The notes under the pieces: generated by a model | What the model was told of the DNA's origin: nothing | The model's input: only the letters and a program-made list of their open reading frames with translations | Databases searched by the model: none | Shown: piece by piece, positions 1,628 to 38,409 of the stretch | Position numbering within the stretch: the stretch's first letter is position 1 | Layout: each line of letters starts with the position of its first letter | DNA from: Chiloscyllium plagiosum | Taxonomy: Eukaryota | Assembly: GCF_004010195.1 (NCBI RefSeq) | Contig: NC_057758.1 | Span: 1,205,396-1,243,804, forward strand | DNA length: 38,409 nt | Reading direction: 5' to 3' | Program-made: the position numbers and the translations under genes

Positions 1628-2228
1628 AACTACCGGACGCCTGGATGCCTCATCTTACACTTTGGGATCCTCCAACCATAGAGGATCAATGTGGATTTCA
1701 CTAGTTTCCTCGTATCCTCTCTACACCCTCAACTGTATCTCAGATGCAACCTTCCAACTCGGCACAGCCTTCTTGAACTGCACTATCTGTTAATCTTCCA
1801 CCCGACCTGTCCGTCCACTGCCCTCTCCGACATCTTCCACCCGACCTGTCCGTCCACTGCCCTCTCCGACTTATCACATTCACCCCCACCTTCATCGACT
1901 TAGTGCATTCCCAGCTACCTTCACCCAGCCACACCCACTCCCATTTACCTCTCCACCCCATCGGGTCAGAAGACTCCTCCTTCAAACACCGCAATTTCCC
2001 CCCAGTCGTGGTCAACGATGCTCTCCACCGCATCGTCTCCACTCCCCGCTCCTCCGCCCTTGAGCCCCGCCCCTCCTACCGCCACCAGGACAGAACGCCA
2101 CTGGTCCTCCATTACCACCCCACCAACCTCCATATACAGCATATCATCCGCCGTCATTTCCTCCACCTCCAAACGGACCCCACCACCAGGGATATATTTC
2201 CCTCCCCTCCCCTATCAGCGTTCCGAAA
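1628..2228 (+). mobile_element. Penelope-like element fragments (end of GIY-YIG domain and 3' region, followed by RT C-terminal/linker region)
   Basis: ORF 1903..2250 contains FKHRNFP..DALHRIVSTPRSSALEP..RTPLVLHYHPTNLHIQHIIRRHF..IFPSPPLSAFR; paralogous to ~28333-28899. Confidence 0.8.
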
Positions 2229-2230
2229 NN

Positions 2231-2311
2231 TGTTGGGAAAGGGTGTGTAAGGAAGGCACTATTACAATATTCACGGTAGACCTCTGTATGCAGGTGGACT
2301 GGGAATATCAG
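2231..2311 (+). mobile_element. short CR1-type LINE endonuclease fragment
   Basis: VCKEGTITIFTVDLCMQVDWEYQ resembles the decayed 'IIMGDFN..VDW' motif of the APE domain. Confidence 0.5.
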
Positions 2312-2858
2312 TCTGGGCCACCCGGACGAACCAACCCAATCACCCTGTAGCACAGCATTTCAACTCCCCCTCCCACTCCACCGAGGATATGCAGGTCATT
2401 GGTCTCATCCACCGCCAAACCACAACAACCCGATGGTCGGAGGAGGAGCGTCTTATCTTCCGACTGGGAGCCCTCCAACCGCAGGGGATGAACTTGGGCT
2501 TCACCAGTTTCTTCATCCCCCCTCCCCCCACCTTGTCTCAGGCGGATCCCTCCCGCCCGGCACCGCCTTCCTGCCCTGCAGTCTTCTTCTTGGCCTCTCC
2601 GCCTCCACCCTACTCCGACCTATCACCTTCACCTTGACCTCTTTCCACCTATCACATTTCCAACGCCCCTCCTCCAAGTCCCTCCTCCCTACCTTTTATC
2701 TTCTCCTGCTGAACACTCTCTGCCCTTCTTCGGGCACAGGCCTGTGCCCGAAACGTCGAATCTCCTGTTCCCTGGATGCTGCCTGACCTGCTGTGCTGTT
2801 CCAGCAATAAAGTTTCAACTTTGATCTCCAGCATCTGCAGACCTCACTTTCTCCTCGA
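2312..2858 (+). mobile_element. Penelope-like element 3' end (GIY-YIG C-terminus, 3' UTR and pLTR with rearranged hammerhead-like motif)
   Basis: HPVAQHFNSPSHSTEDMQVIGL..EEERLIFRLGALQPQGMNLGF; C/T-rich UTR; pLTR GCCCGAAACGTCG..GATGCTGCCTGACCTGCTG..TCCAGCATCTGCAGACCTCACTTTCTCC. Confidence 0.85.
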
Positions 2859-2859
2859 A

Positions 2860-2997
2860 GAATTAACCATGCTAAATTGCCCGTAGTGTTAGGTAAGGGG
2901 TAAATGTATGGGTGGGTTGCGCTTCGGCAGGTTGGTGTGGACTTGTTGGGCCGAAGGGCCTGTTTCCACACTGTAATGTAATCTAATCTAGTCTAAA
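2860..2997 (+). mobile_element. HE1-type SINE 3' half
   Basis: Matches ~29762-29899, including the same tail TGTAATGTAATCTAATCTAGTCTAA. Confidence 0.85.
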
Positions 2998-3637
2998 GCC
3001 TAGGAAGGTGATTTGGGTTTTGAAAAATTCACTTTTATCTAGCTCTATCACCAAGCATACCTTCCACAATCAATCAAACAATTCCAACAAATGGTGCAAA
3101 CGATGCTTCTATGACTGACTAAAAATCACTAGGTCAACAATACACATCACACAGGTGGGTAATCGAGCAATAACCTTATTAGCTAGTCTCTGAAATGTGG
3201 CTAGAGCGGTTTTATGCCAAATGGTTTCTGCACTGATATGGTCCACAGTCCTTTGAACTGCTCTGTCAGATGTATTTGCCAACTTAGAATTGTAAGTTGC
3301 TTGCCCCACTTCTTCGACAGTCCGCCAACTGCAGAATTGGATATGTATCACTCTTTGCAACGGTGTGACATTGCAATAATTCACACATAACCGTTGGGTA
3401 CCATCTCGCTCTGGCACAATGAACATGGTTGAGCTCCAGTCACAGTAACTCACTTCCGTTATGCCAAATCGAAGCATGCGGTCTACCTTCTTCTGAATAT
3501 GTGCCAATTTTAGAATGTTATGCCTACAAAGATGTTGCTTAATCAGAACAGCATCTCCTATTATGCACAATTAGGTTGGTACTTCCCAGTTTATTTCCAC
3601 ATATCTCCCCATGTGAAAGTAATAACTCTTTTAAGTC
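2998..3637 (-). mobile_element. Gypsy RT fragment (duplicate of ~29900-30540)
   Basis: ORF 3109..3570: WSSTMFIVPERDGTQRLCVNY...ALATFQRLANKVIARL..CIVDLVIFS (decayed YIDD motif). Confidence 0.85.
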
Positions 3638-3649
3638 GTTTGTGGTTGT

Positions 3650-4200
3650 GTGCACAACCATCTAATCTCATTCCCAGTGGTCACAATGCCAGTCTCACTC
3701 TTGGTCTCAGAGCTCACTGTCTCAGTCTCTTTTAGACCCAGTACACACTATGACACTCCCTGTCTCTCTACCAGACACAGACATCACTATCCAAGTCTCT
3801 GTTTCACTGAATTCACTGTAAACATACACGGTGAGTCCCACAGATTGCCGTCCCATTCTGTGTCAGTCACAGAGCTCAATGCGCCAATTTCTGTCAGTCC
3901 CAGACCTCCCTGTCCCAGTTTCACTCTCGGATCCAGGGCTCATTGTCTCGGTTTCTCTCTCAAACCAAGAGCTGACTGTCCACGTCTCTGGTAATCCAAG
4001 AACTCACTGCTCCAGTCTCGGCAAATCCCATCGTGCACTATGCCTGGCTGTGTCAGTCACAGAGCTCCTGTTCCAAGCTGTGTCAGTCACAGTGATCGCT
4101 TCTTAGCCCCGTGCTCACTATCTCAGTCTGTGTCAGCCCCAGAGCTCACTGTCCCAGTCTGTCAGACACAGACCTCCCTGTTCCAGTCTCACTCTTGTTC
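3650..4200. repeat. degenerate 31-bp minisatellite, first block
   Basis: Recurring CCCAGAGCTCACTGTCCCAGTCT(C/G)TGTCAGT-like units, e.g. at 4138-4168. Confidence 0.8.
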
Positions 4201-4471
4201 TGAAGGTGATTTCGACACCTCTCTGATAAATGAAATCAAAGCACCCAGACGTTAGAACCTTGCCTCTGTAATCAGACAAAGGAGTGTGACACGGTAATAG
4301 CCTACTTCTCACCACTCGTCTGTTTTGAATAATTTAACAGAATTACTAAAATCCGGACAATTTCCTGACAACTGATCAAAATTCCACTGGAAAGAATGTT
4401 ATTCAGAATAAATACAAAGTCCCATTTATATAAACGGAAGTAATAAGAAAATAATAAATGAAAATATAATC

Positions 4472-4529
4472 NNNNNNNNNNNNNNNNNNNNNNNNNNNNN
4501 NNNNNNNNNNNNNNNNNNNNNNNNNNNNN
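4472..4529. other. assembly gap (N run)
   Basis: Ns. Confidence 1.
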
Positions 4530-4730
4530 AAAAGAACACTTCCTTAGACACGATCGATGATGCAACAAAGACTCATGATATGATTGATTTTAGGCTGAAA
4601 CACCATGAATTGGCGTTGGATTTCTGTGTGTTTGTTTTAAATTATTCGGCCAAATTCAAAATTGCCGTCTAAACAAGCTTAAGGCATCCATTAACAAAAC
4701 CAATTGTTCCATGTTTCCATTTTAGAACTA

Positions 4731-4959
4731 GGAGAAAGTGAGGACTGCAGATGCTGGAGATCAGAGCTGAAAAATGTGTTGCTGGAAAAGCGCAGCAGGT
4801 CAAGCAGCATCCAAGGAGCAGGAGAATCGACGTTTCGGGCATAATCCCTTTTTCAGGAAAATTTTCCTGAAGAAGGACTCATGCCCGAAACGTCGATTCT
4901 CCTGATCCCTGGATGTTGCCTGACCTGCTGCGCTTTTCCAGCAACACATTTTTCAGCTC
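4731..4959. mobile_element. fold-back (palindromic) Penelope pLTR-derived insertion with TSD
   Basis: 98-bp inverted arms 4764-4861 and 4862-4959 with no spacer; 33-nt unpaired extension; flanked by TCCATTTTAGAACT (4716-4729) and TCCATTTTGGAACT (4958-4971). Confidence 0.85.
4863..4898 (+). ncRNA. minimal type-I hammerhead-ribozyme-like motif
   Basis: CTGAAGA(4867-4873)-A-GGAC TCAT GCCC-GAAA-CGTC; stem II has one mismatch and stem I is weak; a mirrored, mutated copy lies on the minus strand at ~4828-4858. Confidence 0.5.
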
Positions 4960-5084
4960 CATTTTGGAACTGTGTACTTTCTCCACCTGATTCCTTTAAG
5001 TGATAAAAGGATTATATCTTAAAGGGGGCATACGTTGTTTTGCAATTCATGATTATTTTATAAAAGTATTTAGCACTTTCATCT

Positions 5085-8000
5085 CCAATGCTCACTGTTT
5101 AACTCTCACTCTCAGTCTCAAAGCTCACTGTGCCAGTCTGTGTCAATCCCAGTGCTCAGTGTTCTAGTCTGAGATATTCCTGAAATTTAGTGTAATTGTG
5201 TGTTGGGGGGTGGGGGCACAGAGCTCACGACCTCAGTCATAGTCGCAGATCTCACTTTTCAACTCCGTCAGTCCCTAAGTTCGCTGACCCAGTCTGTGGC
5301 AGTTCCAGAACTCAATGTCCCAGTCTTACTCTCAGTCCCAAGGCTCAGTGGCCCAGTCTGTGCCAGTCCCAGACAACACAGGCCCAGCATCTTTGAGTCG
5401 CAGAAATTGCAGTCCTGTTCTCACTCGCATTCCCAGAGCGCAATAATCCACCCTCTGTCCGCCCCACAACCCACTGTCAAATTCTTTCACTTACAGAGCT
5501 CTCTGTTCCAATATCTGTCAGTCCGAAGCTTCATTGTCACTGCCTCAATCAGCCACAGAGAGCACTATCCCAGTCTCTGTCAGTCCTAGAGCACAATGCC
5601 CAGGTGTCTGTGAGTCCCAGAGATCACTGTCTCATCCTAAATCACCCCGAGACCTCATTTTCCCAGTTTCTGTCAGCCCGTGTTCACTGTCCCAGGATGT
5701 GTCAGTCCCAGAGCGCAGTGCCCCAGTCTCATTCAGTTCCAGAGATCGCTCTGTCAGTCTCTTTCAGGCCCAGTGCTGACTGTTTCAGTCTCTTTCCGTC
5801 TTAGAGCTCATTGCGTCTGTCTCATTCTCCCTTCCTCTGCTAACTCTCCAGGTTTCTGGGAGCTCTCTCCTACATTCTTCCCCGCCGTCTGTCTCAGTCC
5901 CAGATCACACTGGCCCAGAAACGTTCAATTCCAGTGCTCACTGTCTCAGTTTCACTCTTAATCCCAGAAATCACTGTCCCAGATTCTCCCAGTCCCACAG
6001 CCTAATGTCACAGGCTTATTCAGTCCCAGAACTTGTTGTTCCTGTCTCTGCGAGGCCGACAACTCAATGTCCCAGTCTCACTCTCAGTCGCAATCTCACT
6101 TTCTGCCTCGAGTTCATTGTCTCAGTCTGTGCTCCAATCTGTCATTCTCACACCTCACTATCCCTGTCTCTGTTAGTTCGAGGACTCACTGTCCCAGTCT
6201 CACGCAATCCCAGAATTTACTGCCCCAACCTCGGCCAGTTCCAGACCTCATATTTACATTCGGTGACAATTCTAGAGCTTACTGCTGCAGTCTGTGACTG
6301 TCCCAGCGCTCACTGTCCCCATCACTGTCAGTCCCAGACCTCACAGTCTCAATCTTTTTCTTTTAATTTTCAGAGGTCACTGTCACACTCTCACTCTCAA
6401 TCCCAGTGATCACCTTCCCAGTCTCACTCTCAGATCCAGAACCCATTGTCCCTGCCTCTTTCATTGCAAGAGCCCATTGCCCACTTTCAGGCTCACTTTC
6501 AGTCCCAGTCCCGAGCGCCCAGTGATTCTCAGATCTCACTGGGACAGTCTCTTTCTGTTCCAGACCACACTGTCTCACTCTTGTGTCCCATCGTTCAACA
6601 CCACAGTCTCATTCTGGGTCCCATGCGCTCACTGCGACAATCACCTTCTGTCAGGACTTGATTGTCCAAAGTCCATATCATTTCCAGTGCTCATTCTTTC
6701 AGATTTGGTCAGTCACAGTGTTTACTGTCCCAGTCTTTCTCAATCCCAGAGCTCGTTCTCCAAGTCTCACGCTCAGTCCTACAGCTCTTTCACAGAAGCC
6801 TCTGTCAACTCCACTTCTCACTGTCCCACTTCCTGTCCGTCTGTGTGTTCACTCTCCCAGTCACTATTTGCATGACAACTCACTATCCTAGTCTGGGTCA
6901 ACCCCGCAGCTCATTGTCGCAGTCACTGTCAGTCTCAGAGGTAACTATCCCAGTCTCTCTCTCGTCTTAGTGCTCAGTGTCCAAGTCTGTCAATCACAGA
7001 GCTCACCGTCTCAGTCTGTTTCTGGTACAGAACTCACTTTCACAGTTTGTGTCAGTTGCAGAGCTCACTGTCATAGTCTGTGTCAGTCCCAGTGCTCATT
7101 GTACTAGTCTGTGTTCGTCCCAGATCTCGCTAGTCCAGCCTATTTCAGTTCCAGAGTTGAAATATCCCAGTCTGACTCGCTGTTCCAATTTCATTCTCGA
7201 TCCCAAGTGCACAATGTCCCAATCACTTTCAGTCTCAGATCTCACTCTCCAAGTAGCTGACTGCCCCAGCTTTCACTCTTCCAATCTCTTCCCCACTACA
7301 TTCCTCACTCTTCCAGTTAGTCTCAGTCCCAGAACTCACTACCCCAGTCTATTTCATTCCCAAATCTCAGTGAATCAGTCTGTGAGGGACCCAGATCTTA
7401 CTGTTCTAGTCTCTTTCAGTCCCACAGCTCACTGTCCCGGTCTCACTTTCGGTCCCAGAGTTCACTGCCCCACTTTCTCCCAGGGCCGGCTTGCTGACCC
7501 AGTCTGGCTCTCAGTCCGAGGTCTCAATGAACCAGTCTGTGTCAGCACCAGATCTAAACTGGCCATGTCTCTTTCAGTCCCAGAGCTTGTTGTCCCAGTC
7601 TCACCTTCGGTCCCACAACTCACTGTACGTATCTCAGTCTCGGTACAAGAAATCACAGTCTTGGGCGCTGCCAGTTCCACAGCTCACCATTCCAATCTGT
7701 GTCAGTCCCGGAGCTCACTGTCACAGTCTTTGTCAGTTCCAGAACTCACTTACCTAGCTCCTGTCAGTCCAAGTCCTCACTCTTCCAGTCTCTCTTAGTC
7801 TCCATGTTTACTCTCCGAGTTTCTCGTCAGTCCCAGAGCTTATTCCGCCAGTCTCTGTCAGTTACAGTGCTTGGTGTCCCAGTCTATTACAGTCCCAGAG
7901 CTCACTGACCCAGTGTGTGTCAGTCCCATATGTCACGTCCACTGTCTTTCGGTCCCATAGCTGACTGTCCCAGTCTCTGTCAGTCTCAGAACTCACTGCC

Positions 8001-9265
8001 CTCGTCTCTGTCAGTGTAATTGCTCACTGTCCCAATCTTCCCATTCCTATTAAGCACTATTCCAGTCTTACTCTCAGTCCCAGGTCTCAGTGACATAGTC
8101 TGTATTAGTCCCAGAGCTTGCTTTCCCATTCTCACAGTTGGTCGCAGAGCTTAGACGTTGTCAATCCCTGCTCACTGTTCCAGTCTGTGTTAGTCCCAGC
8201 GCTCACTCTGCCAGTTCCTTGTAGTTCCAGGCCTCACTGTCCGAGTCTCTGTTAATCCCGTTGTTCACTCTCCGAGTTTGTTGTTATTCCCAGTGCTTAA
8301 TCTCTCAACTGTCAGGCAGCAGTTCACAGTTACAGTCTCTGTCAATCCCTGTGCTCAATCTCGCAGTCTCACTCAGTTCCAGTGCTCTCTGTCCCACTTT
8401 AAATCTCAGCCCCAATACTCTCTGCTCTTGTCTCTTCCTGTCCAGAAATTAATCTTCCAGTGCCATTCAGCACCAAATCTCACTATGATCATCTCACGCT
8501 CGGTCCCAGAGCTCACTGTCCCCAGACTGTCAGTCTCACAAATCGCCGTACCACTCTGTGTCAAAGCCACACCTCATTGCACCACAGTTGTGTTCAGCCT
8601 CAGAGCTTACTGTCCCAATTGCTGTCAGTCCCAAAGCTTACAGTCCCTGACTGTGGTAGTCGCAGAGCTCACTGTGCCACATTGCGTAGTCTCAGGGCTC
8701 CATTGCAATCTCACTTTCTGTCCCTGCGCTGTCTGCTCAAATCGCATTCTATTCCAAAACCAATCTCCCCGTCTCATTGACTCCTGGTTCTCACTGTCTC
8801 ACTTCTGAAGCTCGGCCACAAAGCTCACTGTCGAAATCCCTGTCAGTCTCAATGCTCACATTCCAAGTCTGACTCAGTCCAAATGCCACTCTCCCAGTCT
8901 CAGTCAGATCTCATTCTCCCAGTTCCTTGTCAGTACCAGTGCTCATTTGCCCAGAACCGACTGTCAGCATCTGTCAGAATCACAGATGTCACTGTCCTGG
9001 GCTGTTTCAGTCCTAGACCTCATTGTTTCAGTCTCTCTTAGTCCCAGAGTTCTCTTGCACAGTGTCACGCTCAGTCCCATTGCTCGTTGTCCCAGTTTCA
9101 CTCTCAGTCCCCAAGAACTCACTGTCCAAGTCTCACCTTCAGTCAAAGAGCTAACTGTCTCATCCTCTGTTAGTTTCAGAGCTCACTGTCTGAGTCTCAG
9201 TCAGTTCTAAGAGTTCAGTGTCCCTGTCTGTTTCAGACCCAGTGTTCACTGTCAGTCTGTGTCAG
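5085..9265. repeat. degenerate 31-bp minisatellite, main block (~4.2 kb)
   Basis: Consensus read by eye as CCCAGAGCTCACTGTCCCAGTCTCTGTCAGT (variant ..CTCACTCTCAGT); accounts for the many SQSLSVPELT/PRAHCPSL-type spurious ORFs. Confidence 0.9.
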
Positions 9266-9422
9266 TCTAAGGGGCGGGTCATCAAGAAAATTAAGACATT
9301 GTTGATCTCAAAGTTAGACGTAAAAATGGCAGGTTCATAAAAAACATAGGTACTGCGTCTGCAAATGAACAAAAAGTAAGCAGTGAATAGGAAAGGTGAG
9401 ATACAGCTGCAGATTTTAACCA

Positions 9423-9646
9423 GGCGAACGTGAGGAATGCAGATGCTGGAGATCAGAGTCGAGGTTAGAGTGGTGCTGGAAAAGCACGGCAGGTAAGGCA
9501 GCATCCGAGGAGCAGGGAAAACGACATTTCAGGCAAAAGCCCTTCATTATTCCTGATGAAGGGCTTTTGCCTGAAACGTCGTTTTCCCTGCTCCTCGGAT
9601 GTTGCCTGACCTGCTATGCTTTTCCAGCACCACTCTAATCTAGACT
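9423..9646. mobile_element. second fold-back Penelope pLTR-derived insertion with TSD
   Basis: ~93-bp inverted arms 9457-9549 and 9554-9646; 34-nt unpaired extension; flanked by CTGCAGATTTTAACCA (9407-9422) and CTGCAAATTTTAACCA (9645-9660). Confidence 0.85.
9549..9584 (+). ncRNA. minimal type-I hammerhead-ribozyme-like motif
   Basis: CTGATGA(9553-9559)-A-GGGC TTTT GCCT-GAAA-CGTC: intact core boxes, 4-bp stem II, palindromic ACGT at stem III; stem I poorly paired. Confidence 0.6.
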
Positions 9647-9798
9647 GCAAATTTTAACCACCTACAAAATAAATATAATTTTGTGGGTGCTCCATTGTCT
9701 GGGTCTAACGAAGACAAGGACTAGGTGTGACACATTCCTGATTACAAGGTGTTCAGGTATGTTAAGAAAATTTGTGATGGTAAATGTTGCAGATATTG

Positions 9799-12120: not shown

Positions 12121-15064
12121 GGTTCTAGCCTGGACCATAACAGATTGGTTCCCTTGTTGGGAATGATTCTATAATTCCAATTTGGGTTTTGGTTTGTTGA
12201 ACTCAAAGATGGTGTTGATATGTTGTGTTCTGGTTGTTAAAATCCATTAGTTTCAACCGTGCTTGTGTCGTAATGGCTCATTTAGAAAGATTCTGGCGGT
12301 TAGAATAAGTGACTTTGTGGGTTATACACAAGGTGAGAAAAGCAGATTTGTGAGAATTGGCAGACAAGTGGAAGTTGGCGTTGCATTCATCTGTGAGGAA
12401 TGGAGCGATAGTTACAGAACTGGTTTGGCATTTAAATTTGCTGGAAAAATCATCAGACTTCAATTCAATTGCAGATGAGACAGTTTGAACATGAAAATAA
12501 AATGGAACCGTTTAAATTACTGTTAAAAGCAAAGAAAAGAGAAAAAAGGAATGAATCGGCCTCGCAGAACAAAAAGAAAATGAAGCATCACTTTGGGATA
12601 ACAATAATAAAAGGAGAGGAAGGCTCCAGGAGTGAAAAGAGACAAGGAGCGAGAGGAAAGGAACAAAGAGAGAGTGTTTGAACTTCAGAAATTGGCACTT
12701 TAACAGGAAAGTCGGCTTAAAAGGATGGACGAGCTTAAAAATTCCTTTCCCGAGTTCATGAAAACTCATGGGGAAAAACAAAGAGTCAAAACAGCATGAT
12801 TAGCAACGGAAATGACAAATCGTTACGAGTTGGTTCATATATCAAAGTTCAGTTTCCACCATCGATTTCAACCCGTGAGAGATAGAAATTGAGGAAAAGA
12901 GAAATCCTCATGTGGTAACATAATAAAGATAGGTTACCACAGAGTAAAAAGGAAACCCGTGAATGGTTTAAGAGGAATTGAAAAGGCTCTGATGCAATAA
13001 AATGGGTCCCACAAAGTCACAGTGTTGGTTATTTATGAAAAGGACTCGGAAGACTGATGTCAGAAAACAGGATAAATCAATTAATAATTGGAAGAGGTAT
13101 AGAAAGCACAGTAGAAGTTAAAAAGCTGCACCAGCATATCCAAACTGGTCGGAGGTGGGTTGAGACGTAAGTGCCCGATCTTCTTGAACCTTTTACTTGC
13201 AGTATAACCTTTTACTTGCAGTATAAGTATAACTCGCAGATATTTGATTTGTTTAAGCCAGGAACAGCAGGTAAATAATTACAGAATCAAGAGATCATGT
13301 CATTCTTTGATATTGAGAGATGAGGTTTATTGCCAGAAGAACAGCTAATGCGTGGAATTCAAGATGAGACAAGAAGTGCATCATTGTATAGAGTGAGGTT
13401 ACAATGTCCAGTGAAAAGTAGAAAAGTGGTCATACGAGTACCGGACAACCTTACGGCTCCAATAGTACAGGTGAGCCTTGGTAATGATATAACTAAGTGA
13501 CACGTTGATGTGCTGCTTACTGTGGTCAAAACTGCGGTAAATCAGGCAACTGAGGCGTTAAAGGAAGCATGCTCCGGGATCTTTCCCCCATCTGTCTGAT
13601 AACAAGTTCACAAAGTCATTAGCTGAAACAGGGAGCGAAATGAAAGAATACCAATAAGCAAGTTGAAGTATAATTATCAGAAATCATGTTAGATCAAGTG
13701 CTTGAAACAAAACAGAAACAGGTGGAGATCAAAGTGAATTAGTTTACCTCAGAGAAATGAATTGAATTACAACAGAAGCAATTGTAACAAAAAACATACA
13801 CAGAATAAATATCTGAGTGTATACCTGAATACGACTATCTTAAAATTGAAGTCTTGTTCAGGAAATGGAAAACATCACATACTGAGGCAGATGAGAAATG
13901 GGCAGCGTTTCGTCAAGTTAGATATGTGAGATATAGAAAGGAAGTGTTGTGGCTTGTGCATGAATTCATAGTAGGTAGCAATTTTGGGATAAGACCAGCT
14001 GCAGTTAAAATGCAAAACTCATTTTTACTGGCCTGGTTGACTCAGAATGCAATTGAATTATGCCAGATATGTCACCCATGTCAGATAATTGGGGAACCGT
14101 AGGCAATAATACAACCATTTATAAATGCCTTCAATATCTATTCTTGCATTTGAGGGAACTTTGACAAGGATCTTAATTGATTACCCAAGACAAAAATGCG
14201 AATCAGTACCTGCTAACAATAATGTGCCCACGAGACTTCCAAAGGCCAGTCCATTAGATGATTTCACAGCAGAAGCGTTACTCAATTTTTTTTTTTCACG
14301 AGATATGGAATATTTACATAGATACAATCAGACCAAGGGTCGCATTTTGCTTCAAAATTATTCAGGGACATTATAGACAACTTTTGAACAAAACAATTCA
14401 AATCTATTGCGTGCTGTCCACAATTGCAGGGAACGCTAGAAGCGTGGCATCAGACGCTAAAGACCACGTTAAAACGCTAATACTCAAGACTACCCAGATG
14501 ATTGCGATAAAGGAATTCCATTTTCCTGTTTGCCGTTAGATGCGCACCAAATGAATCGATGAAATTCAGTCTATTTAAATTAATTTCTGGGCATGATGTG
14601 AGAGGATGACTGAAATTAATTAATGAGAAATTGGTGAGTCAGAATTCAGAGACCACAAATTTGGAATGGTTAAATATATCGTGGAACTTTGTGGACAATA
14701 TGTAAAAATAACACTGTATATGGTAAAACAGCAAGCATACAAGAAATCTAAAACTCGCAATTTTGCTAAAGGAGTTAAAGCGTTGGTGTTGTTTCCAGTG
14801 ATAAGTGAACCTCTGACATCAAGGTGAACTATTTGGTAAGGACTCCAGACAGAAATAAATTTCACAGCGATTTTTAAGTGAATATGCTCAAAAGTGTATT
14901 TTCGTCGGGAACGAAAGCAAAAGCTGAATGTTTTACGTAATACAGCACAGAGTGAAGAACCAAGTTCAGAACGTTATGACTCGGATATTCCTCAAAATAA
15001 TATTGAATGCATGCGACATGACTACAGAATCAAAGTGAGTTGTAGTGACTGCAGCTCACCCATA

Positions 15065-16357
15065 CCGCAATGGGGCAACTGATGTTTGTCATTTGTATAA
15101 ATGACAGCGATGAGGGCGTTGAAGGATGTGTTAGTAGATTTGTGGAGGACAGTAATGTTGGTGGAGTTGAGGATCGTGCTGAAGGGTATAGCAGGTTACA
15201 GAGGGACTTAGATAAGGTGCAGAGCTTACATTACATTACATTACATTACATTACATTACAGTGTGGAAACAGGCCCTTCGGCCCAACAAGTCCACACCGA
15301 CCCGCCGAAGCGCAATCCACCCATACATTTACTCCTTACCTAACACTACGGGCAATTTAGCATGGCCAATTCACCAGACCTGCACATCTTTGGACTGTGG
15401 AGGAAACCGGAGCACCCGGAGGAAACCCACGCAGACACGGGGACAACGTGCAAACTCCATAGTCAGTCGCCTGAGGCGGGAATTGAACCCGGGTCTCAGA
15501 CGCTGTGAGGCAGCAGTGTGCCTCCCACTGGGCCGCCCACCGTGCCACCTCTCAGCTGGGCTGAGAGGTGGCAAATGAAGTTTAATGCGGAAAGTATGAG
15601 GTGATTTACTTTGGAAGGTGTACCATGAATAAAGAGTACTTTATGGTAATGGTAAGATTCTTGGTAGATTAGATGAGTAGAGAGACCACCGTGTCCATGT
15701 ACATAGATCTCTGAAAGTTGCCACCAAGGTTGATAGAGTTGTTGAGAAGATATAAGGTGTGTTCCCTTGTGTTGTTTGAGGGATTGAGTTTCGGAGTCAC
15801 GAAATCATGCTGCTGCTGAACAAAACTCTGATGCAGCCGTGTTGGAGTATTGCATACAGCTTTGTTCACTACATTATCGCAAGCATATGAAAGCTTTGCA
15901 AAGGGTTAAGAGGAGATTTTGACGGGTTGGAGGGAAAGTCTTAAAAGGAAAGGCTGAGGGACTTAAGGCTGTTTTGGTTACAGAGAAGAAGGTTGAGATG
16001 TGACTTCATTGACACATATAAGATAATGAGAGTGTTTGGTAGGGTAGACAGTGAGAACCTTTTTTTCGTCGAATGGTAATGGCTAGCACGAGGCTACATA
16101 GCTTTAACTTGTGGGGTGATAGATACAGAACAGATGTCAGAGGTAGTTGTCTTACTCAGAGTGTAGGAAAGTTCGTGGAACACGCTATTTGCAACGTTAG
16201 CAGATTCGCCAACTTTAAGGGCATTTAAATAGTCTATAGACAAACATACGAATGAAATCCAGTAGTGTGGGACAGATAGGCTTCATATTGATTCCAAAGG
16301 TCGGCGTAACACGACAGCCAAAGGGCTTTTCCTGCACTGTAATGTTCTATGTTCGTT
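15065..16357 (+). mobile_element. 5'-truncated CR1-type LINE inserted in the Gypsy RT
   Basis: LMFVICINDSDEGVEGCVSRFVEDSNVGG..RLQRDLDKVQS/WAERWQMKFN; 3' end CCTGCACTGTAATGTTCTATGTTC. Confidence 0.85.
15226..15550 (-). mobile_element. HE1-type SINE nested in the CR1 LINE
   Basis: (TTACA)n tail on the + strand, reverse-complement V-domain, reverse-complement B box GGAATTGAACCC at ~15479-15490. Confidence 0.9.
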
Positions 16358-20375: not shown

Positions 20376-21082
20376 TAGAACATAGAACATAGAAAAATAC
20401 AGCGCATTACAGGCCCTTTGGCCCTCGATGTTGCGCCGATCCAAGCCCACCTAACCTACACTAGCCCACTATCCTCCATATGCCTATCCAATGCCCGATT
20501 AAATGCCAATAAAGAGGGAGAGTCCACCACTGCTACTGGCAGGGCATTCCATGAACTCACGACTCGCTGAGTAAAGAATCTACCCCTAACATCTGTCCTA
20601 TACCTACCACCCATTAATTTAAAGCTATGCCCCCTCGTAATAGCTGACTCCATACGTGGAAAACGGTTCTCATGGTCAATCCTATCTAAACCCCTAATCA
20701 TCTTGTACACCTCTATCAAGTCACCACTAAACCTTCTTTTCTCCAATCAAAACAGCCCCAAGTGCCTCAGCCTTTCCTCATACGATGTTCCTACCATACC
20801 AGGCAACATCCTGGTAAACCTCCTCACCACATCCTTCCTATAGTATGGCGACCAAAACTGCACACAATACTCCAGATGCGGCCTCACCAGACACCTTTCT
20901 GCCCAGCTCTGCAACTTATCTATATCCCGCTGTAACCTGACACATCTTTCCTCACTGTCAACAACTCCACCGACTTTCGTATCATCCGCAAACTTGCTCC
21001 AACCTTCTAGCCCCTCCTCCAGGTCATTTATAAAAATGACAAACAGCAATGGTCCCAAAACAGATCCTTGCAGAACACCAAG
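20376..21082 (-). mobile_element. CR1-type LINE 3' portion with internal deletions
   Basis: ORFs 20747..21112 (GVLQGSVLGPLLFVIFINDL..SKFADDTKVGG..LVRPHLEYCVQFWSP) and 20456..20746 (GDLIEVYK..FFTQRVVSSWNALP); (TAGAACA)n tail. Confidence 0.92.
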
Positions 21083-21149
21083 GGATTGCCAAGGGATATT
21101 GACAGGAAACAAAACTGGGCTGAGAAGTGGCAGGTGGAGTTGGGAACAG

Positions 21150-22215
21150 TACCTTCCTGATCTAAATCACACACAGAGGTATTCCAAATCTTCGCTCTCT
21201 CAACACAGTGACATCTCTCCCAAACTATATTACTTACTGAGTGCCCCATACCCATTCTCTGTTCCCACAATGACAGCTCCCCCAATGAATATTACTCACT
21301 CGGTTCCCCACACTTTTACCACTTTGACAGCAACATGTTGATTTATATTACACACTGATTGCCGCCACCCTGCCTGTCTGTTAACCCAGTCACAGCTCTT
21401 TCTGGTCCATATTAGTTTCTGAATGACACCCTGTTACCACAGTGACAGCTGTCCCAGTGAATATTACTCAGTTCGTGCCACATGCACAGTCTCTGTTACT
21501 ACACTGACAGTTCCCTCCTGATATATCTCACACAATGAGTGACTGCACATAACATCTTTATGACCAAAATGACAGTCCCCTTCAGATCTATATTACATCC
21601 TGAGTGACTCCACAGCCCCTCTCTTTTGCTGCGGTGACACTTACCCACATGTGTATAACACACGGAATGACCCTGCACTCCCCCTTTGTTAGCACTCAGA
21701 CAGCTCTTTTCAGATCTATATTCGACACACAGTGATTCCACATCTCCACACAATTAGCACAATGACAGCTCCCCCAATGAATATTACTCAGAGTACCCCA
21801 CACCCACTCTCTGTTACCACAGTGACAGCTTGGTCCTGATCTGCTACCACGGTGATTACTCTCTCTGAGTTATTTTACACACAGTGTTATTCAAACCCTC
21901 CTTCTCTTACCACCATGACAGCTCCCTCCTGACCTACATTACTTACAGTGTATCCCACTAATAACTCTATATTTTTCCGTGGTGTCAGCTCGCTCCTGAT
22001 CTACTTTACAATCTGATTGTCTTCACAACTGCTCTCTGTTAACCAAGTGACAATTTTCTCCTGACCTGTATTACAGAATGAGTGACTCCACATCTCTTCT
22101 CTAATAACAAAGTGATAGCTTCCACCTGATCGGTATTACACACTCAGTAATATCATAGTCCCTCTCTCTCCTACCACCGTAACATCTCCCCTCCTGATCT
22201 ATGTTACTGCAGTGA
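21150..22215. repeat. degenerate ~60-66-bp tandem repeat
   Basis: Recurring CTCTGTTACCACAGTGACAGCTCCCTCCTGATCTATATTACA-like units; TGACAGCT at ~21763 and ~21823, related motifs at ~21916, 21983, 22049, 22113, 22180. Confidence 0.8.
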
Positions 22216-22246: not shown

Positions 22247-23128
22247 TCATCCTTTAATACATTGAAGAAGTGAAGTGAAGGGATATTTCAGAGCTTTTCC
22301 AAACTGCTGTCTAAAATTTCTCTGAATCACACAATAAAAAATAGAATTAGTGCAGCAACCCATGATTTGTAGCATGAAGCCTAGTTCACGTGCAAAACCA
22401 TCGATCGAAGTTCCATAGAACCATTTCCTTAATCGGTACCATATGCAATAAACTGTTAACGTTGACCATAGGACGATGAAATTGGCTGAGATTGTAAAGA
22501 TCAGAATAACTGACTTCCTGCGTCTCTGCATCTCTGGGTCTCTTGAACACTCCAAGGAACTGTTGGAAAATAGTCTTCTGCGGCTTCTGCTTGTGACTAA
22601 AATGTGTCTGACAATGAAAGCATTGGGTGCCAAAGAAATGGGCACCCAGGACTTAGGATGTATTGTAGAAACTCAAGAGCTCCCCAAAATCGAGAATAGA
22701 CGATCTTCAATCTTACAACACAGAACCAAGGAGCGTTCCACAGTCGATACTTGCTCGTGAACATAAAAAACCAGAATACATTCTCTACGCAGTCACTATT
22801 CCAAGGACGACAAGTGTCATTTTATTCGTGAAGTATTTACTTTGAAGTTTGTGACAAGAAATCGCCACAAATCGATCCAATGTGAATGCGACGGTGAACC
22901 AGACAGAACAGTCAGAAATTGTGTTCAGCAGAACTGCATGAATGTTGCAAATGGGGATGGAAATCATGAAATAAAACTGTTCCTGGAAAACAATCGGAAT
23001 GTGCCTCAATATCAGATCAAAAATAACGACGAGTAGATCCGCCACCGCCATGGACAACAGGTAATAGGTGATGCTTTTGGAGAAACTGCACTTCTTTTGA
23101 CAGAGTATTACAATTGTCAGTCCGTTCA
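22247..23128 (-). pseudogene. GPR139-like: GPR139/GPR142-like class A GPCR, coding exon 2 (TM1 end to TM7), frameshifted
   Basis: NGLTIVILCQKKC..YYLLSMAVADLLVVI..CSVWFTVAFTLDRFVAISCHKL; a middle frame (ENVFWFFMF..PWFC..FWGALEFLQYILSPG); then IVRHILVTSR..DPEMQRRRKSVILIF..CCTNSIFYCVIQRNFRQQF; frameshifts at ~22787 and ~22645; polypyrimidine tract plus AG acceptor at 23129-23150. Confidence 0.88.
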
Positions 23129-23619
23129 CTTTGAGGAAGAGAAAGAAATGATATGTAAATAATATTACTTAGCTGCAGATAATATTGAGATCATTGCTAA
23201 ATTGACTCTTAATGTTCCTCACATTTGGTTTGAAAATTTGAGCTGACGTTGAGCATCGAAACTTGAACGTTGAACAGCAGCTTGTTTGAATTTCTGACGA
23301 GGGAAAAGCACAAAAGCACATAAACTGATATTTGGATAAGGGAACTGGTCTGGAAAGATAATTACAGATGAATTATTGTTCTAAGAAGACTGCAAATATT
23401 TCAGCACGGGTATGCGTTACGTTTAAGGTCTGACTAACAGTTGAATGTTCGATTAGTCAATCGTGGGAGGCTGGTCCCAAAAGGCCAACCACAGCGAATG
23501 TTGAAAATGAGAAGGATGCTGTGGAATAAATCGTGCATGGGTGGTTTTTTCAAGTCACCGTCCGCTTGCATGAAAGCTGGTAGACTAGTGAGCTGTGTTT
23601 GAGCTTCATTTTAGAAACC

Positions 23620-27096: not shown

Positions 27097-27579
27097 TATA
27101 TACTTTTAGAAAGACGCCAATTGATTATGAGTAGTCAGCATGATATTGTGAGTAGAAGGTCATACCTTACCAGTTTTCTGAGAACTATTTCATAAAGTGA
27201 TCTGGTAGACTGATGACGGCAGGAGATCATATGCAGTCTACATGGATTTCAGTAAGGTATTTGGTAAGGTTCCACCGAATGGGTTGCAATGGAAGGTGAG
27301 ACAGCATTGAAAATAATTCAACCTGGCAAATTAATTGACTTGTTGACTTGTTGATAAGAAGCAGACGGTAACAGTGGAATGATGTTTGTTGGATTGGAGG
27401 CCTCTGACTAATGGTGTGCCTCAGGGCTCTCTGCTGGGCACATTGCTGCTTGTCATCCACGTCATGATTTAAATGAGAAGGAGGGAAGGCATGATGGTTA
27501 AGTACGCAGATGACATGAAAATAGTTGGGATCATGGGCAGTTAGGAAAACCATGAGAAATTGCCGCATGATCTTGATTA

Positions 27580-27853
27580 GGAGAAAGTGATGACTGCAGA
27601 TGCTGGAAATCAAGAGTCAGAGAATTTGGCAATGAAAAAGCAAAGCATGCCAGGCAGCATCTGAGAAGCAGGAAAGTCGATGGATCAGCCAAAAAAGCCT
27701 CATGATTGAGGCTTTTTGATCAAGGTGGTTGATCCCGTGTGGTTGTGGGCCCCAAGGCGGAAGATGAGGTATTCTTCGTCCAGACGTCGATGGCGAGGAA
27801 TTGGTAGTGGAGGAGGCCCAGTATTTGCATGTACTTGACGGAGTGGGAGGGGT
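27580..27853 (-). mobile_element. Penelope-like element 3' end (GIY-YIG C-terminus and pLTR)
   Basis: Starts GGAGAAAGTGATGACTGCAGATGCTGG, the same terminus as at 4731 and 9423; minus strand encodes RRLDEEYLIFRL / GPQPHGIN. Confidence 0.8.
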
Positions 27854-29175
27854 TCTTCCACACATGCCATCCCTTACCTCCGTTGAAGGCCGCAAAGGAT
27901 CCTTACACATGTGACAGATATATAAACGTACTTCCACACACGTCACGGGACGTGAGACAATTTCCTCCTCGACTCCCTTGTTAGGACCATGGCACCGACC
28001 AACACACTCTCCACTCCCGGCACTTTCCCCTGCCACTGCAAGCAGTGCAAAACCTGCACACACACCTTCACTTTCCTCCGTCCATTTCCCCAAAGCATCC
28101 TTCCAAATGCAACAGAAATTTACCTGTACTTCCAAACATGTCAACTACTGTGTGCTTTGCTCCCCATGTGGTCTCCTCTGCACTGCAAAGGAGACTGCAG
28201 AATGTTTCACTGAACATCACTGAGACACAATCAGGAAACATCCCCACAGTCCTGTGACCGAAAACTTTAACTCCGCCTCCCACTCCGCCAAGGACATGCA
28301 AGTCCTGGGCCTCCATCACCTCCAAACTCGAACCACCGGACGCCTGGAGGGAGAACGCCAGGCTTACACTTTGGGATACTCCAACCACAGAGGATCAATG
28401 TGGATTTCACTAGTTCCCTCGTTTCCTCTCCACACCCTCAACTGTATCTCAGATGCAACCTTCCAACTCGGCACAGCCTTCTTGAACTGCCCTATCTGTT
28501 AATCTTCCACCTTACCTGTCCGGTCCACTGCCCTCTCCGACTTATCACATTCACCCCCACCTTCATCTACTTAGTGCATTCCCAGCTGCCTTCACCCAGC
28601 CACACCCGCTCCCATTTACCTCTCCACCCCTCGGGTCAGAAGCCTCCTCCTTCAAACACCGCAATTTCCACCCAGACGCGGTCAACGATGCTCTCCAAAG
28701 CATCTTCTCCACCTCCCGCTCCTCCGCCCTTGAGCCCCGTCCCTCCAACCGCCACCAGGACAGAACCCCACTGGTCCTCCATTACCACCCCACCAACCTC
28801 CATATACAGCATATCATCCGCCGTCATTTCCTCCACCTCCAAACGGACCCCACCACCAGGGCTATATTTCCCTCCCCTCCCCAATCAGCGTTCCGAAAAG
28901 ACCACTCCTTCCGTGACTCCCTCTTCAGGTCCACACGCCCCACCAACCCAACCTCCACTCCCGGCACCTTCCCCTGTAACTGCAAGAAATGCAAAACTTG
29001 TGCCCACACCTCCCCACTTACTTCCGTCCAAGGCCGCAATGGATACTTCCATATCCGCCACAAATTCACCTGTATCTCCACACACATCATTTATTGCATC
29101 CACTGCACCCGATGTGGCCTCCTCTATATTGGGGATACAGACCGCCGACTTGCGGGACATTTCAGAGAACGTGCC
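27854..29175 (+). mobile_element. two tandem Penelope-like (Neptune-type) fragments: Cys-rich linker and GIY-YIG endonuclease
   Basis: GTFPCHCKQCKTC (~28020-28060); second copy GTFPCNCKKCKTCAH..KFTCISTHIIYCIHCTRCGLLYIGDTDRRLAGHFRE (~28960-29170). Confidence 0.85.
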
Positions 29176-29582
29176 TTTCTTCACCGTTACATGTTTCTGT
29201 TGATGAATATTTCAATTTCCTGGAAAAATACCAATGGGTCTTTATATTCTTTCGTAATAATCCCAGAGTATCATCGTTCCGACACCGACATCATTGGCCT
29301 AGATAGCCTCCTTGAAGTCTTCATGTTGGGGGTTAAGGTAGTTTTCAGGCTATCAAATGCCTTTTCACAGTCCGCTGTGCACCGAAATTATTCGCCTTTA
29401 TTAGCAAGTCAATGTTTGGAGCAGCCACACTGTTAAGTTTCGGCACAAACATTTGGCAAACTTCACACAATACCAGAAAGTGTAGTATTGCTATTTCTGC
29501 CAACCATGTGGGAAATTCCCCAATTACTTACATTTTCCAATCCGTGGAGCCATTTTCCCTTTCTCAATAACAAAACGGCATC

Positions 29583-29899
29583 GGGTGGGCGGCACGGTGG
29601 CACAGTGGTTAGCGCTGCTGCCTCACAGCGCCAGAGACCAGGGTTCAATTCCCGCCTCAGGCGACTGACTGTGTGGAGTTTGCACGTTCTCCCCGTGTCT
29701 GCGTGGGTTTCCTCCGGGTGCTCCGGTTTCCTCCCACAGTCCAAAGTGGTGCAGGTAAGGTGAATTGACCATGCTAAATTGCCCGTAGTGTTAGGTATAG
29801 GGGTAAATGTATGGGTGGGTTGCGCTTTGGCAGGTTGGTGTGTATTTGTTGGGCCAAAGGGCCTGTTTCCACACTGTAATGTAATCTAATCTAGTCTAA
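29583..29899 (+). mobile_element. full-length HE1/V-SINE-type SINE inserted in the Gypsy RT
   Basis: A box TGGCACAGTGG (29598-29608), B box GGTTCAATTCC (29642-29652), V-domain, LINE-like tail and TCTAA repeats. Confidence 0.93.
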
Positions 29900-32800
29900 A
29901 GCCTAAGAAGGTGACTTGGGCTTTGACAAATTCACTTTTATCTAGCTCTATCACCAAACATACCTTCCACAATCAATCAAACAATTTCAACAAATGGTGC
30001 AAACGTTCCTTCCATGACTGACTAAAAATCACTAGGTCAACAATACACATCACACTGGTGGGTAATCGAGCAATAACCTTATTAGCTAGTCTCTGAAATG
30101 TGGCTGGTGCGGTTTTATGCCAAATGGTTTCTGCACTGATATGGTCCAGAGCCCTTTGAACTGCTCTGTCAGATGTATTTGGCAACTTAGAATTGTAAGT
30201 TGCTTGTCCCACTTCTTGACACAGTCCTCCAACTGCAGAATTGGATATGCATCAGTCTTTTCAACGGTGTGACATTGCAATTATTCACACATAGCCGTTG
30301 GGTACCATCTCGCTCTGGCACAATGAATATGGTTGAGCTCCAGTCACAGTAACTCACTTCCGTTATGCCAAATTGAAGCATGCGGTCTACCTTCCTCTGA
30401 ATCTGTGCCAATTTTGGAGTGTTATGTCTACAAAGATGTTGCTTAATCAGAACAGCATCTCCTATTATGCACAATTAGGTTGGTACTTCCCAGTTTATTT
30501 CCACAAATCTCCCCATGTGAAAGTAATAACTCTTTTAAGTCATTTTCATTTTCTTGTGGAAAGTAACTCAGTAATACATCCCATTTTTGACAAATTACTC
30601 ATTATACAATTTGATTTGAGGAACGTCCAGTTAAGAATCCTTTGAATTTGGTTCTTTCGTCTGTGCTAAAATCATTAACACATCCTTCTCTTGCTTTCCT
30701 TCCCTTTCGAAAAACCTTTTGAGCATATTCAAATGAAACACTCTGTGAGATTTCTTCCTGTCTGGAATCCTTATCATATAGTTCATCTCACTCAATTTCG
30801 TCTCGATTCAATAAGGCACACTGAACCTTGCTTTTACCTGGAAGTAATACCATACCTTACCTCTAATGACAAATTTGCGAATTTGTATTTCATTATACGC
30901 ATCCTGTTTCATTGAATGCTGTGATACTTTTAAAATCTGTCTAGCCATCTCTCCGGATATCTTTAGTTGTGCTCCAAAATTTGACACATGGTCCAAATAT
31001 GTGGTCTGCCAATTCTAATTTATAAATTTTTCTTTAATCAATTTTAACAGTCTCCTTTCTTCATGCCCAAACATTAATACAAATGGCCTGAATTTGGTCG
31101 ATTCATTTGGTGCATCTCTGATCGAAAAAAGTCCACACTGAATTCCTTTATCCCAATCATCTGGATAATCCCGTCCATAAGCCGTCAACATGGTCTTTAG
31201 TATTTGATACCATCTCTCTAGCACTCCCTGCGATTCTGGGGCGGCCCACAGTAAATTGCTTTACTCTCAAGTGATCCAGAACTACCTTGAATACTTTTGA
31301 TGTGAACTTTCGTCTTTGAGTTAACTGGATCTCTGTTGGCAGTTTGTAACTAGTAAAAAAGAAAGTGTTATTCTTCTGCAACCCTTTTAGCTGTGATGTC
31401 GTGTATTGGGATTGCCTTGGAAATCAAGTCGATACATCCATTATTGTTCCTAAATATATATTCCCAGTTTTTGTTTGAGATGGAGGACCTATGAAATCAA
31501 TATTGTGAAAGGTTACTCAAATGCGAGGATAGATATTAAAGATGCTGGTTTTATGTGGTTTCACGATTGGCTGACATGTACGACACGTCTAGCAAAATTC
31601 ACCGACATCCCTTTGTAGCCCAAGCCTTAAAAATGTATTTGTATTTTAGCCTGTGTTCTCCTCACTCCTAAATGATCTCTAAGTGGAAGCTCATCCGTCA
31701 TTCACAGCACTGCCTTTCTCTGCCCCACTAGCAAAGCAATCTGATGAACTTCTGCCCATTTCTCATCTGCTTGAAGGTATGTTGGTCTCCATTTCCTAAT
31801 TCACACATCATTTGTTAAGGCTTAACACACAGGGATGCATTCACTCTCCCTCTCTGCACATACATTTTAATGCAAAGTTTTAAGTTCTCATCTTTCAGCT
31901 GCAACTCGATAATCTTAGCAGAGCAAAAGATATTTGCATGTTTACCTGTTTGCTCCTTCTCTGTCCCATTTATCTGATCAAAAAGTCCCTGTTGCAGCTA
32001 TCTCAGCTTAACTATCTGTGCCTTTTGATCTCTGCTGCTTCAGCCTGTGCCTCTGTGATCCTGTGGCTACACAATCTAGGAAAATCCCTCGATAAAGATC
32101 CTTCATGTCTTCAGTTGTCTGTGTCTCCACTGGGTTTTCAATTCGAGTAGATAGCATGTCTACCGGTGAGTCAATGTTACCATTTCCAAGAAGAAATGGT
32201 AACATTGAGCTGAGAGTTTGTCCAGTACTCCTACCACAAATTCTCCACTCTTCTCTGGACACACTAGCCTCATTTTATATCAGTGATCACTTTGTATCTC
32301 AACATGAATTCCTGTTACCAGTGACTTTTCTGGCAATAATCCTTCAAGCGTATATATCTCCTCAACCCTCAGCATCAGAGACTGAGATGATGCTGGGACC
32401 CTCAAAATCGTAACCTCTTTACTTGCTACTTCTTGCCAATGCGAATCCACTTTACCATTGCATGGATATTTTTAAGAGATCTGGCACTTCATTCCTCAAA
32501 CAGCCTGTGATCATTTGTACACTCTGAGGCAGACGTCTAATTTGCCTTGTACATTTTGTTACTAGTCCAACAAAACATCCAGGCACGTCAGGATTTCCTA
32601 CATGTGGCTTTTTCCGACCCAACAATTCGGATTTCTTGTTTATTACAATGAAAACACGAGAGCTTTTTTATTTCTTTGTCACCTCAACGGTTTCCTTTTT
32701 ACCTTGTGATATTTTCTTCATACGATCTTCACTAAGATCGACCTTCCCGTTCAACGTGAGGATTTATCTTTGCCCCAATTTCTATCCCTCATGGACGGAA

Positions 32801-37894: not shown

Positions 37895-38409
37895 CGGGAA
37901 GAGGAAGGTCAGCTTGCAGCATTCCTCGAGCAGTGGCTGCCATAGCTTTTAAAACTGGAAGCCGGATCAGGCCGGGTTAGGGTAGAATGGGCCTACCGGG
38001 TCGCAATACCCGGGCCCGGCTCGAACCAGCGCCCATGCCCGGTCCTGTTCCGGCTGCAGAGCTACAAGGTGAGGCAGATACTCCTAGAAGCCTCTAGAAA
38101 TCTCGGAAAAGACCCCCAAGCTATGATCTATAAAGGATCCAAGATCATGTTATTCCAGGACTTTTCGCCAGCTCTGGTCCGAAAGAGGAAGGCATTCGAC
38201 GATGCGAAGAAGCGTTTAAGGAACTTAAATATTCAGTACTCCTTACACTATCCAGCGACGTTACGCTTAAACCATGAAGGATCCGTATATAACTTTGGAT
38301 CACCAGAAAAGGCTAAGGAATTCTTGGACTCTCTTAGATAAACTGGAAGACATAATGGATGTTGGTTTGCCTTCCCCCCCGCTTTGGTTTATATCCCCCC
38401 CTTTTTTTT
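37895..38409 (+). mobile_element. L1-clade LINE, 5'-truncated ORF1 (RRM and CTD) and start of the inter-ORF spacer
   Basis: FLEQWLP*LLKL..RVEWAYRV..RPCPVLFRLQSYKVRQILLEASR..IMLFQDFSPALVRKRKAF..YSLHYPATLRL..FGSPEKAKEFL; in-frame TAG at 37943-37945. Confidence 0.85.

Follow-up and report, generated by a model that had tools for sequence, protein, structure and literature searches.

At positions 4716–4971 of the window, by which we mean the whole stretch of 38,409 nucleotides of Chiloscyllium plagiosum DNA that was analyzed, lies an insertion that folds back on itself. From left to right it consists of an AT-rich copy of host DNA (left copy of the target-site duplication, TSD; 4716–4729), a 34-nt tail of a Penelope-like element (PLE) on the left arm only (4730–4763, minus strand), a left arm made of a 5′-truncated terminal repeat (pLTR) with the element sense on the minus strand (4764–4861), a spacerless head-to-head junction (4854–4869) with its axis between 4861 and 4862, a tail-less pLTR copy on the plus strand as the right arm (4862–4959), and the right TSD copy with one mismatch (4958–4971). 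Position 4730 is the usual outer end of the family, and the right arm ends with 2 nt of microhomology to the target. The unpaired left extension had been given as 33 nt in the sequence-only reading of this DNA and measures 34 nt. The flanks of the insertion contain no long open frame. N gaps lie nearby (4472–4529), and an old, degenerate array of a 31-bp satellite (approximately 3670–9170) is interrupted by a nonsatellite segment (approximately 4195–5075) that contains the fold-back.

Several other features share the window. An inverted duplication at 99% (240–1127 and 12309–13195) adjoins N gaps and may be recent or an artifact of the assembly, and 1632–3641 and 28335–30545 are direct duplicates at 88–95%. 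Copies of a repeat with a short tandem tail, which we take to be tRNA-type SINE-like, occur at 1–240, 2860–2997, 15236–15516 and 29600–29899, one of them directly after the PLE tail that ends at 2855. Two open frames on the minus strand (22247–23168) presumably resemble the gene of a seven-transmembrane receptor, interrupted by a frameshift, and we assume that the frames at 37946–38341 (−), 20747–21166 (−) and 15049–15360 (+) resemble the end of an L1-type ORF1 and CR1-type LINE fragments.

Alignment of the two 98-nt arms bore out that they are inverted with no spacer and no indel, and that their axis is located 5 nt upstream of CTGAAGA (4867–4873). Left and right arm match at 90 of 98 pairs and differ at eight. 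An ungapped extension gave a palindrome score of 66, compared to a maximum of 10 in 20 local window shuffles, and the hairpin fold of −170.7 kcal/mol (z −22.8) was not equaled in stability by any of 200 shuffles. The fold-back hairpin, 230 nt as a whole unit, exceeds chance. The 14-bp TSD that had been proposed also stood up to analysis, with copies that are identical at 13 of 14 positions and an overlap of 2 nt between the TSD and the right arm. The chance of this match is 6.6e-7 per offset and 3.2e-5 across 49 offset pairs, and no other 14-mer with up to two mismatches to the left copy occurs on either strand of the whole window.

The sequence-only reading had also recognized homology between the arms and the 3′ terminus of a Penelope element elsewhere in the window, and we could confirm this relation (88% over 112 nt relative to 2745–2855). 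The arms are 77% identical to a second fold-back at 9413–9633 and equally to a decayed copy at 27578–27680. At two sites of the window, the same terminal repeat lies directly 3′ of GIY-YIG-type remnants. The first is the 3′ part of a PLE on the plus strand (1975–2855), where a broken GIY-YIG-type C-terminus (1975–2526) is followed by terminal repeat and tail (2741–2855). The second is an older PLE end on the minus strand (27579–27860), where a GIY-YIG C-terminal remnant (27733–27860) precedes a decayed terminal repeat. Two of the four GIY-YIG C-terminal remnants directly precede the repeat in this way; the other two precede more element body. The frame upstream of the copy at 2745 is 53–55% identical to predicted proteins, some of them named as bamboo-shark (tblastn E 8e-56). 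The relatives P0004 (23.4 vs 22.6 bits) and P0010 reach the Pfam cutoff for GIY-YIG, and among the atlas neighbors of the longest PLE piece in the window GIY-YIG and HTH_animal are found on 18–55% of members. The PLE pieces of the window itself gave no GIY-YIG Pfam hit in two sets of four and three queries (0/4, 0/3), and no RT-coding stretch of the PLE family was found within the window.

The homology of the repeat, the TSD and the linkage of the repeat to GIY-YIG support the earlier claim that a Penelope-like terminal repeat was inserted here without coding sequence. The connection of the fold-back to GIY-YIG goes by way of repeat homology, as the fold-back itself contains no ORF. We are highly confident that the fold-back is a truncated PLE insertion. 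It is also likely that this copy is dead and represents an extremely 5′-truncated insertion of an endonuclease-bearing PLE, made in a single event and in trans by an intact member. Cleavage and mobility are both improbable for this copy. The proposal of a distinct kind of "mini-element" found no support, because the unit matches the published arrangement of inverted pLTR, tail and TSD. Pattern scans for the repeat recovered 0 loci in metagenome contigs, viral contigs and prokaryote genomes, as expected for a shark repeat, and no Rfam model matched anywhere in the window at its gathering threshold.

Long inverted arms, a direct repeat and the N gaps nearby could also be read as a MITE or a fold-back DNA transposon, or as an artifact of assembly or amplification. 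We give such readings hardly any credence. Between left TSD and left arm lie the 34 nt of the tail, so that terminal inverted repeats are absent, and the arms are retroelement ends. The eight mismatches between the arms, together with the TSD, exclude a recent copying artifact, and 62–88% of the words of this locus are present in eight organism-A runs from two studies.

An open frame in the arm runs through the tail. The possibility that the arm is the start of a PLE ORF was unsupported in a weak search, in which two of six candidates matched and both were one unrelated host-gene isoform carrying the repeat. Two annotated FUBP3-like isoforms of the bamboo shark (P0012 and P0013) terminate in the translation of a repeat copy that has no tail and starts at the hammerhead core; identical stretches of five residues on either side of it give an apparent 15-nt TSD at the protein level. 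From its sequence, this ending is apparently an exonization or a mispredicted last exon.

The right arm contains a minimal type-I hammerhead motif on the plus strand (4867–4894), composed of CUGAAGA (4867–4873), A (4874), stem II (4875–4886), GAAA (4887–4890) and CGUC (4891–4894). The cut that had been predicted after 4894 is placed at the correct coordinate, with GAAACGTC at 4887–4894. This motif presents the CUGANGA and GAAA boxes, an NUH triplet, palindromic positions 15.2–16.2, the unpaired base before stem II and the pair G10.1–C11.1. A palindromic ACGU accompanies the minimal-hammerhead motif in the PLE family, and the stem III segment forms a duplex of −3.1 kcal/mol. The mirror motif in the left arm (4829–4856, minus strand) is degenerate. 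It reads CUGAAAA because G8 has changed to A, C3 is unchanged, and GAAACGUC is intact. The statement that the motif is present on both strands was therefore not sustained: CUGANGA is intact on the plus strand only. A regular-expression search of the whole window returned intact cores only at 4867 (+) and 9553 (+), and CUGANGA is intact in two of six arm or end copies in the window.

Could this motif be a functional hammerhead, a dimer-cleaving or switchable ribozyme under selection at this locus? The plus-strand core would speak for this idea, as its two boxes, unpaired nucleotide, G10.1–C11.1 pair and palindromic CG agree with the available text of PMC4209133, and the family consensus, among the loose-end rows listed (18 of 760), keeps the CUGAUGA box. 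The secondary structure is less favorable. Helix I of the right arm has only 2 bp, as opposed to 4–5 bp, and stem II has 4 bp with one A·C mismatch. The accessible part of PMC4209133 reports a 2-bp helix I for D. virilis, and by this analogy the short helix would lower the odds of activity without abolishing them. In a monomer model of the full read-through transcript all five ribozyme pairs tested had a probability of 0.0, and in the isolated arm the same type of model, which cannot judge a dimer, assigned 0.16–0.34 to stem II pairing and 0.0 to helix I. The read-through RNA is thus predicted to be one hairpin that excludes the ribozyme. No hammerhead family appeared among the 13 Rfam matches with E up to 10 at 4650–5050, and 11 of these subthreshold matches are miRNA hairpin models. 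CpG decay at C17, G1.1 and the stem III G affects 5–20% of family depth (among the difference rows listed, 40 of 90, none over 4832–4861). Together with the lost G8 of the mirror motif and the intact box in only two of six copies, these observations make a functional hammerhead at this locus very improbable.

Nor did the back-to-back placement of the two motifs prove meaningful, given that they lie on opposite strands, that one has lost G8, and that the ribozyme helices are predicted not to pair in the hairpin. With motifs on opposite strands, no single transcript can supply the pair of sense copies that a dimer requires. Mutants of the anole PLE ribozyme inserted in vitro without any effect of the mutation, according to the available text of PMC11167929. 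The best reading of the motif is that of a passenger carried over from the active parent. Its central place would follow from a position at the 5′ margin of the RNA that was copied, and not from any use that the hairpin makes of it. Two body-linked PLE ends without CUGANGA, at 2729–2752 and 27692–27717, carry a short palindrome in its place, with 12-bp arms and no spacer in the first case and 11-bp arms and a 4-nt spacer in the second. Judged by these letters, the ribozyme region looks as if it were a hot spot for template switching.

The window contains a second, independent fold-back from another subfamily (9407–9659), with arms at 9457–9547 and 9556–9646 and a 34-nt tail. Its TSD of 15 bp (9407–9421 and 9645–9659) has one mismatch, and its center resembles a once spacerless junction from which approximately 6 nt of the left core have been lost. 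The two fold-backs are 77–80% alike, whereas the arm pair within each is 92% alike. Both of them have a 34-nt tail, tail-less ends that agree within 1 nt, and a 2-nt microhomology, and both are centered within 4–5 nt of C3. Our full examination covers these two fold-backs.

To place the locus within its family, we considered contigs aligned to its left half (4530–4861) in three DNA-type runs, one from organism A (X1) and two from organism B, a related species. One arm drew 95,562 contigs in organism A and 109,748 and 46,030 contigs in organism B, hence large numbers in three of three runs. The fold-back is real but ordinary, one decayed copy among a great many. In X1, 899, 1211 and 968 contigs have their outer loose ends at 4729, 4730 and 4731, respectively, and continue in unrelated AT-rich letters (agreement 0.33). 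At the inner side, 533 contigs leave the reference at 4850 and 823 at 4859, continue for a few natural upstream letters and then fall to an agreement of 0.34–0.41. This pattern suggests that many copies stop shortly upstream of the hammerhead core. Compared to the consensus of these loose ends (4850 and 4859), the arm becomes homologous to the natural pLTR from 3 nt before C3, and the four A/T letters in the middle of the junction are absent from the natural upstream sequence.

Joints between distant positions provide a further view of the family. Near-perfect hairpins may break short-read contigs, and no joint at the axis is found among the joints listed (15 of 100). Asymmetric opposite-strand joints (4760-4859, 4766-4844 and 4771-4850) are represented by 1–3 contigs each, in organism B only, among the joints listed. 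The same set includes tail-to-tail joints at 4729-4771 (31, 16 and 10 contigs) and 4726-4771 (10, 6 and 4 contigs), which suggest a nesting of insertions, with older copies hit in their A/T run. It also includes joints 4762-4730 and 4764-4730, suggestive of tandem tails, and joints 4844-4726 and 4848-4731, suggestive of head-to-tail units cut at loop II.

Organism B probably carries the empty orthologous site. In each of its two runs, which come from separate samples and studies, a single contig matches 4530–4729 without a gap at 176 of 200 positions. The alignment breaks off exactly at 4729, where the left TSD ends, and the contig goes on for another 1281 or 2231 nt off the element. The depth at 4602–4613 equals a single contig in all three DNA-type runs, and therefore the flank appears as single-copy in both species; parts of the flank also draw a few other contigs. 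That a single TSD copy is joined to the right flank in organism B is what we infer rather than read. The arms differ at 8 of 98 positions (95% CI 3.6–15.5%) compared to 24 of 200 positions for the flank between organisms A and B (7.8–17.3%; Fisher p 0.43), and these divergences are compatible with insertion after the split of the two species without proving it. Relative to the family majority, three mismatches fall to the left arm and five to the right arm, and the TSD has one in 14, as if the arms had decayed neutrally since insertion. In organism A (X1) we observed a 200-nt contig that covers 4530–4729 with zero differences and ends exactly at the end of the left TSD. Contigs of a unique flank should reach approximately 20 nt into the repeat, and a fork at 4729 is therefore possible in this organism. 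Such a fork may reflect an empty allele or a paralogue, precise excision of the hairpin between its TSDs (in vivo or during PCR), or a nearby variant.

How may such a structure have formed? Read inward from the TSD, right and left arms both show by their sequence the polarity of a cDNA that starts at the 3′ side of the element. We regard priming on two strands followed by head-to-head joining of the cDNAs as the most likely mechanism, and hold it with about even confidence. In this scheme, the GIY-YIG domain would nick the two strands of AT-rich DNA with a stagger of 14 nt, and both freed 3′ ends would prime reverse transcription. The top strand would prime at the start site at the end of the tail (4730), and the bottom strand would prime at a second site 34 nt further in (4959) with the help of the 2-nt microhomology. 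Both cDNAs would end 3–5 nt upstream of the hammerhead core, either at the 5′ end of the RNA or at a stop of the RT. Head-to-head joining via A/T ends and gap filling would then yield the palindrome and the TSD. The tail-less end, constant within 1 nt, the 34-nt tail and the 2-nt microhomology in two of two fold-backs from different subfamilies count in favor of this mechanism. The available text of PMC11167929 describes an anole PLE protein that favors AT-rich DNA, nicks the two strands of its target and extends both, and is a predicted dimer. According to the same text, this protein initiates at two sites of its RNA, the interval between them being the tail, and no difference in start site was seen between top and bottom strand. 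This equality does not account for a tail that is usually present on one arm only, and it counts against the two-strand scheme.

A less likely course of events, though one that we take seriously, is self-priming or a template switch, in which a cDNA begun at the tail end turns back on itself close to the hammerhead and serves as its own template, so that arm 2 derives from arm 1. Self-priming is the explanation given for palindromic PLE junctions in PMC3846280, and the A/T-rich spacerless center could be a 4-nt loop. The asymmetric opposite-strand joints fit a looped fold-back; they suit two independently truncated cDNAs equally well. Self-priming does not by itself account for a second arm whose end varies by no more than 1 nt between the fold-backs of two different subfamilies (two of two). 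This position also coincides with the second RT start site known in vitro from the available text of PMC11167929.

We also considered a nonautonomous fold-back family, in which master copies give rise to transcripts of the entire hairpin that PLE enzymes mobilize as a unit. The centering of both hairpins within 4–5 nt of C3 would agree with such a family, as would the finding that pLTRs in cis suffice for mobilization in trans (PMC3846280). In addition, the right-arm letter at 4909 makes up 9% of organism-A depth and <1% in organism B (among the difference rows listed). Since this letter is present in the family depth of organism A, the differences between the arms need not all have arisen after insertion. 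On the other hand, the two hairpins belong to different subfamilies, have different centers and are only 77–80% alike. Hundreds of contigs (533 and 823 in X1) pass the axis with natural upstream letters or unrelated flanks, and an annotated bamboo-shark protein includes a monomer that lacks the tail and has an apparent 15-nt TSD, which indicates that a fold-back is not required for insertion. A hairpin of −170 kcal/mol would presumably also be a poor template for RT. We consider a fold-back family improbable.

Returning to two-strand priming, we propose, with somewhat less than even confidence, that hairpins as small as these are traces left in the genome when a dimeric PLE enzyme carries out target-primed reverse transcription in both directions, with one cDNA primed from each nicked strand at start sites one tail apart, and with cDNAs that end at the 5′ edge of an uncut hammerhead and are then joined. 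How PLEs acquire inverted repeats and tails is stated to be unresolved in the available text of PMC8557442. If our proposal is true, shark genomes would constitute a very large natural record of the origin of both, and the role of the ribozyme as an RNA boundary or RT stop, instead of a cutter, would be open to statistical testing. Fixed start sites and a 5′ stop at the hammerhead would lead to countable predictions for the whole PLE family. The single locus is of little importance beyond the annotation risk that such hairpins are mistaken for MITEs or miRNA precursors; the PLE family as a whole could matter.

Among known systems, non-LTR retrozymes resemble the fold-back in several respects. 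As described in the available text of bioRxiv 10.64898/2026.07.22.740005, they are noncoding, carry type-I hammerhead ribozymes (HHRs), derive from the pLTRs of PLEs and occur in a chondrichthyan. In contrast, the retrozymes of this text are head-to-tail tandem units with complete HHRs, whereas the fold-back is one head-to-head pair with one broken motif. No tandem array, and hence no run of ≥2 consecutive head-to-tail units by which retrozymes are recognized, is found at 4716–4971.

The minimal HHRs in the accessible part of PMC4209133 share with the fold-back CUGANGA, GAAA, the unpaired base before stem II, G10.1–C11.1 and the palindromic 15.2–16.2. They differ from it in that here helix I has 2 bp instead of 4–5, stem II has 4 bp with a mismatch, one motif is without G8, and the motifs are 10 nt apart. 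The same part of that paper describes dual minimal HHRs on opposite strands at distances of ~100–700 bp, and many solo motifs from truncated PLEs. With the anole Poseidon element PAc, as far as the available text of PMC11167929 shows, the fold-back shares AT-rich targets and a ribozyme in the pLTR and, under two-strand priming, a tail between RT starts and the nicking and extension of both strands. This text draws no link from two-strand extension to inverted insertions. In the accessible literature we found no description of such hairpins from sharks and no stated two-strand model, either of which may exist in supplements and subscription papers.

The closest match is the insertion unit of endonuclease-bearing (EN+) PLEs. 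An inverted pLTR with a 31-bp tail and a 9-bp TSD is called "typical Penelope structure" in PMC3846280. Units with inverted pLTR, tail and TSD likewise appear in the available text of PMC8557442 and PMC8969392, and the tail is also found in PMC3846280, PMC8557442 and PMC11167929, to the extent that these texts are accessible. The accessible text of PMC3846280, PMC8557442 and PMC8969392 contains no shark example and no class of ORF-free hairpins this small. Head-to-head inverted pLTRs, a tail at one end (34 nt here, 31 bp in Pen2a_Av), a palindrome at the junction, an AT-rich target and microhomology at a junction are common to this unit and the fold-back. The TSD has 14 bp here, compared to 8–10 bp in the rotifer, and the fold-back differs in having neither an ORF nor captured DNA between its repeats, with a total of 230 nt. 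The fold-back is the published PLE insertion unit of inverted pLTR, tail and TSD at the shortest end of 5′ truncation.
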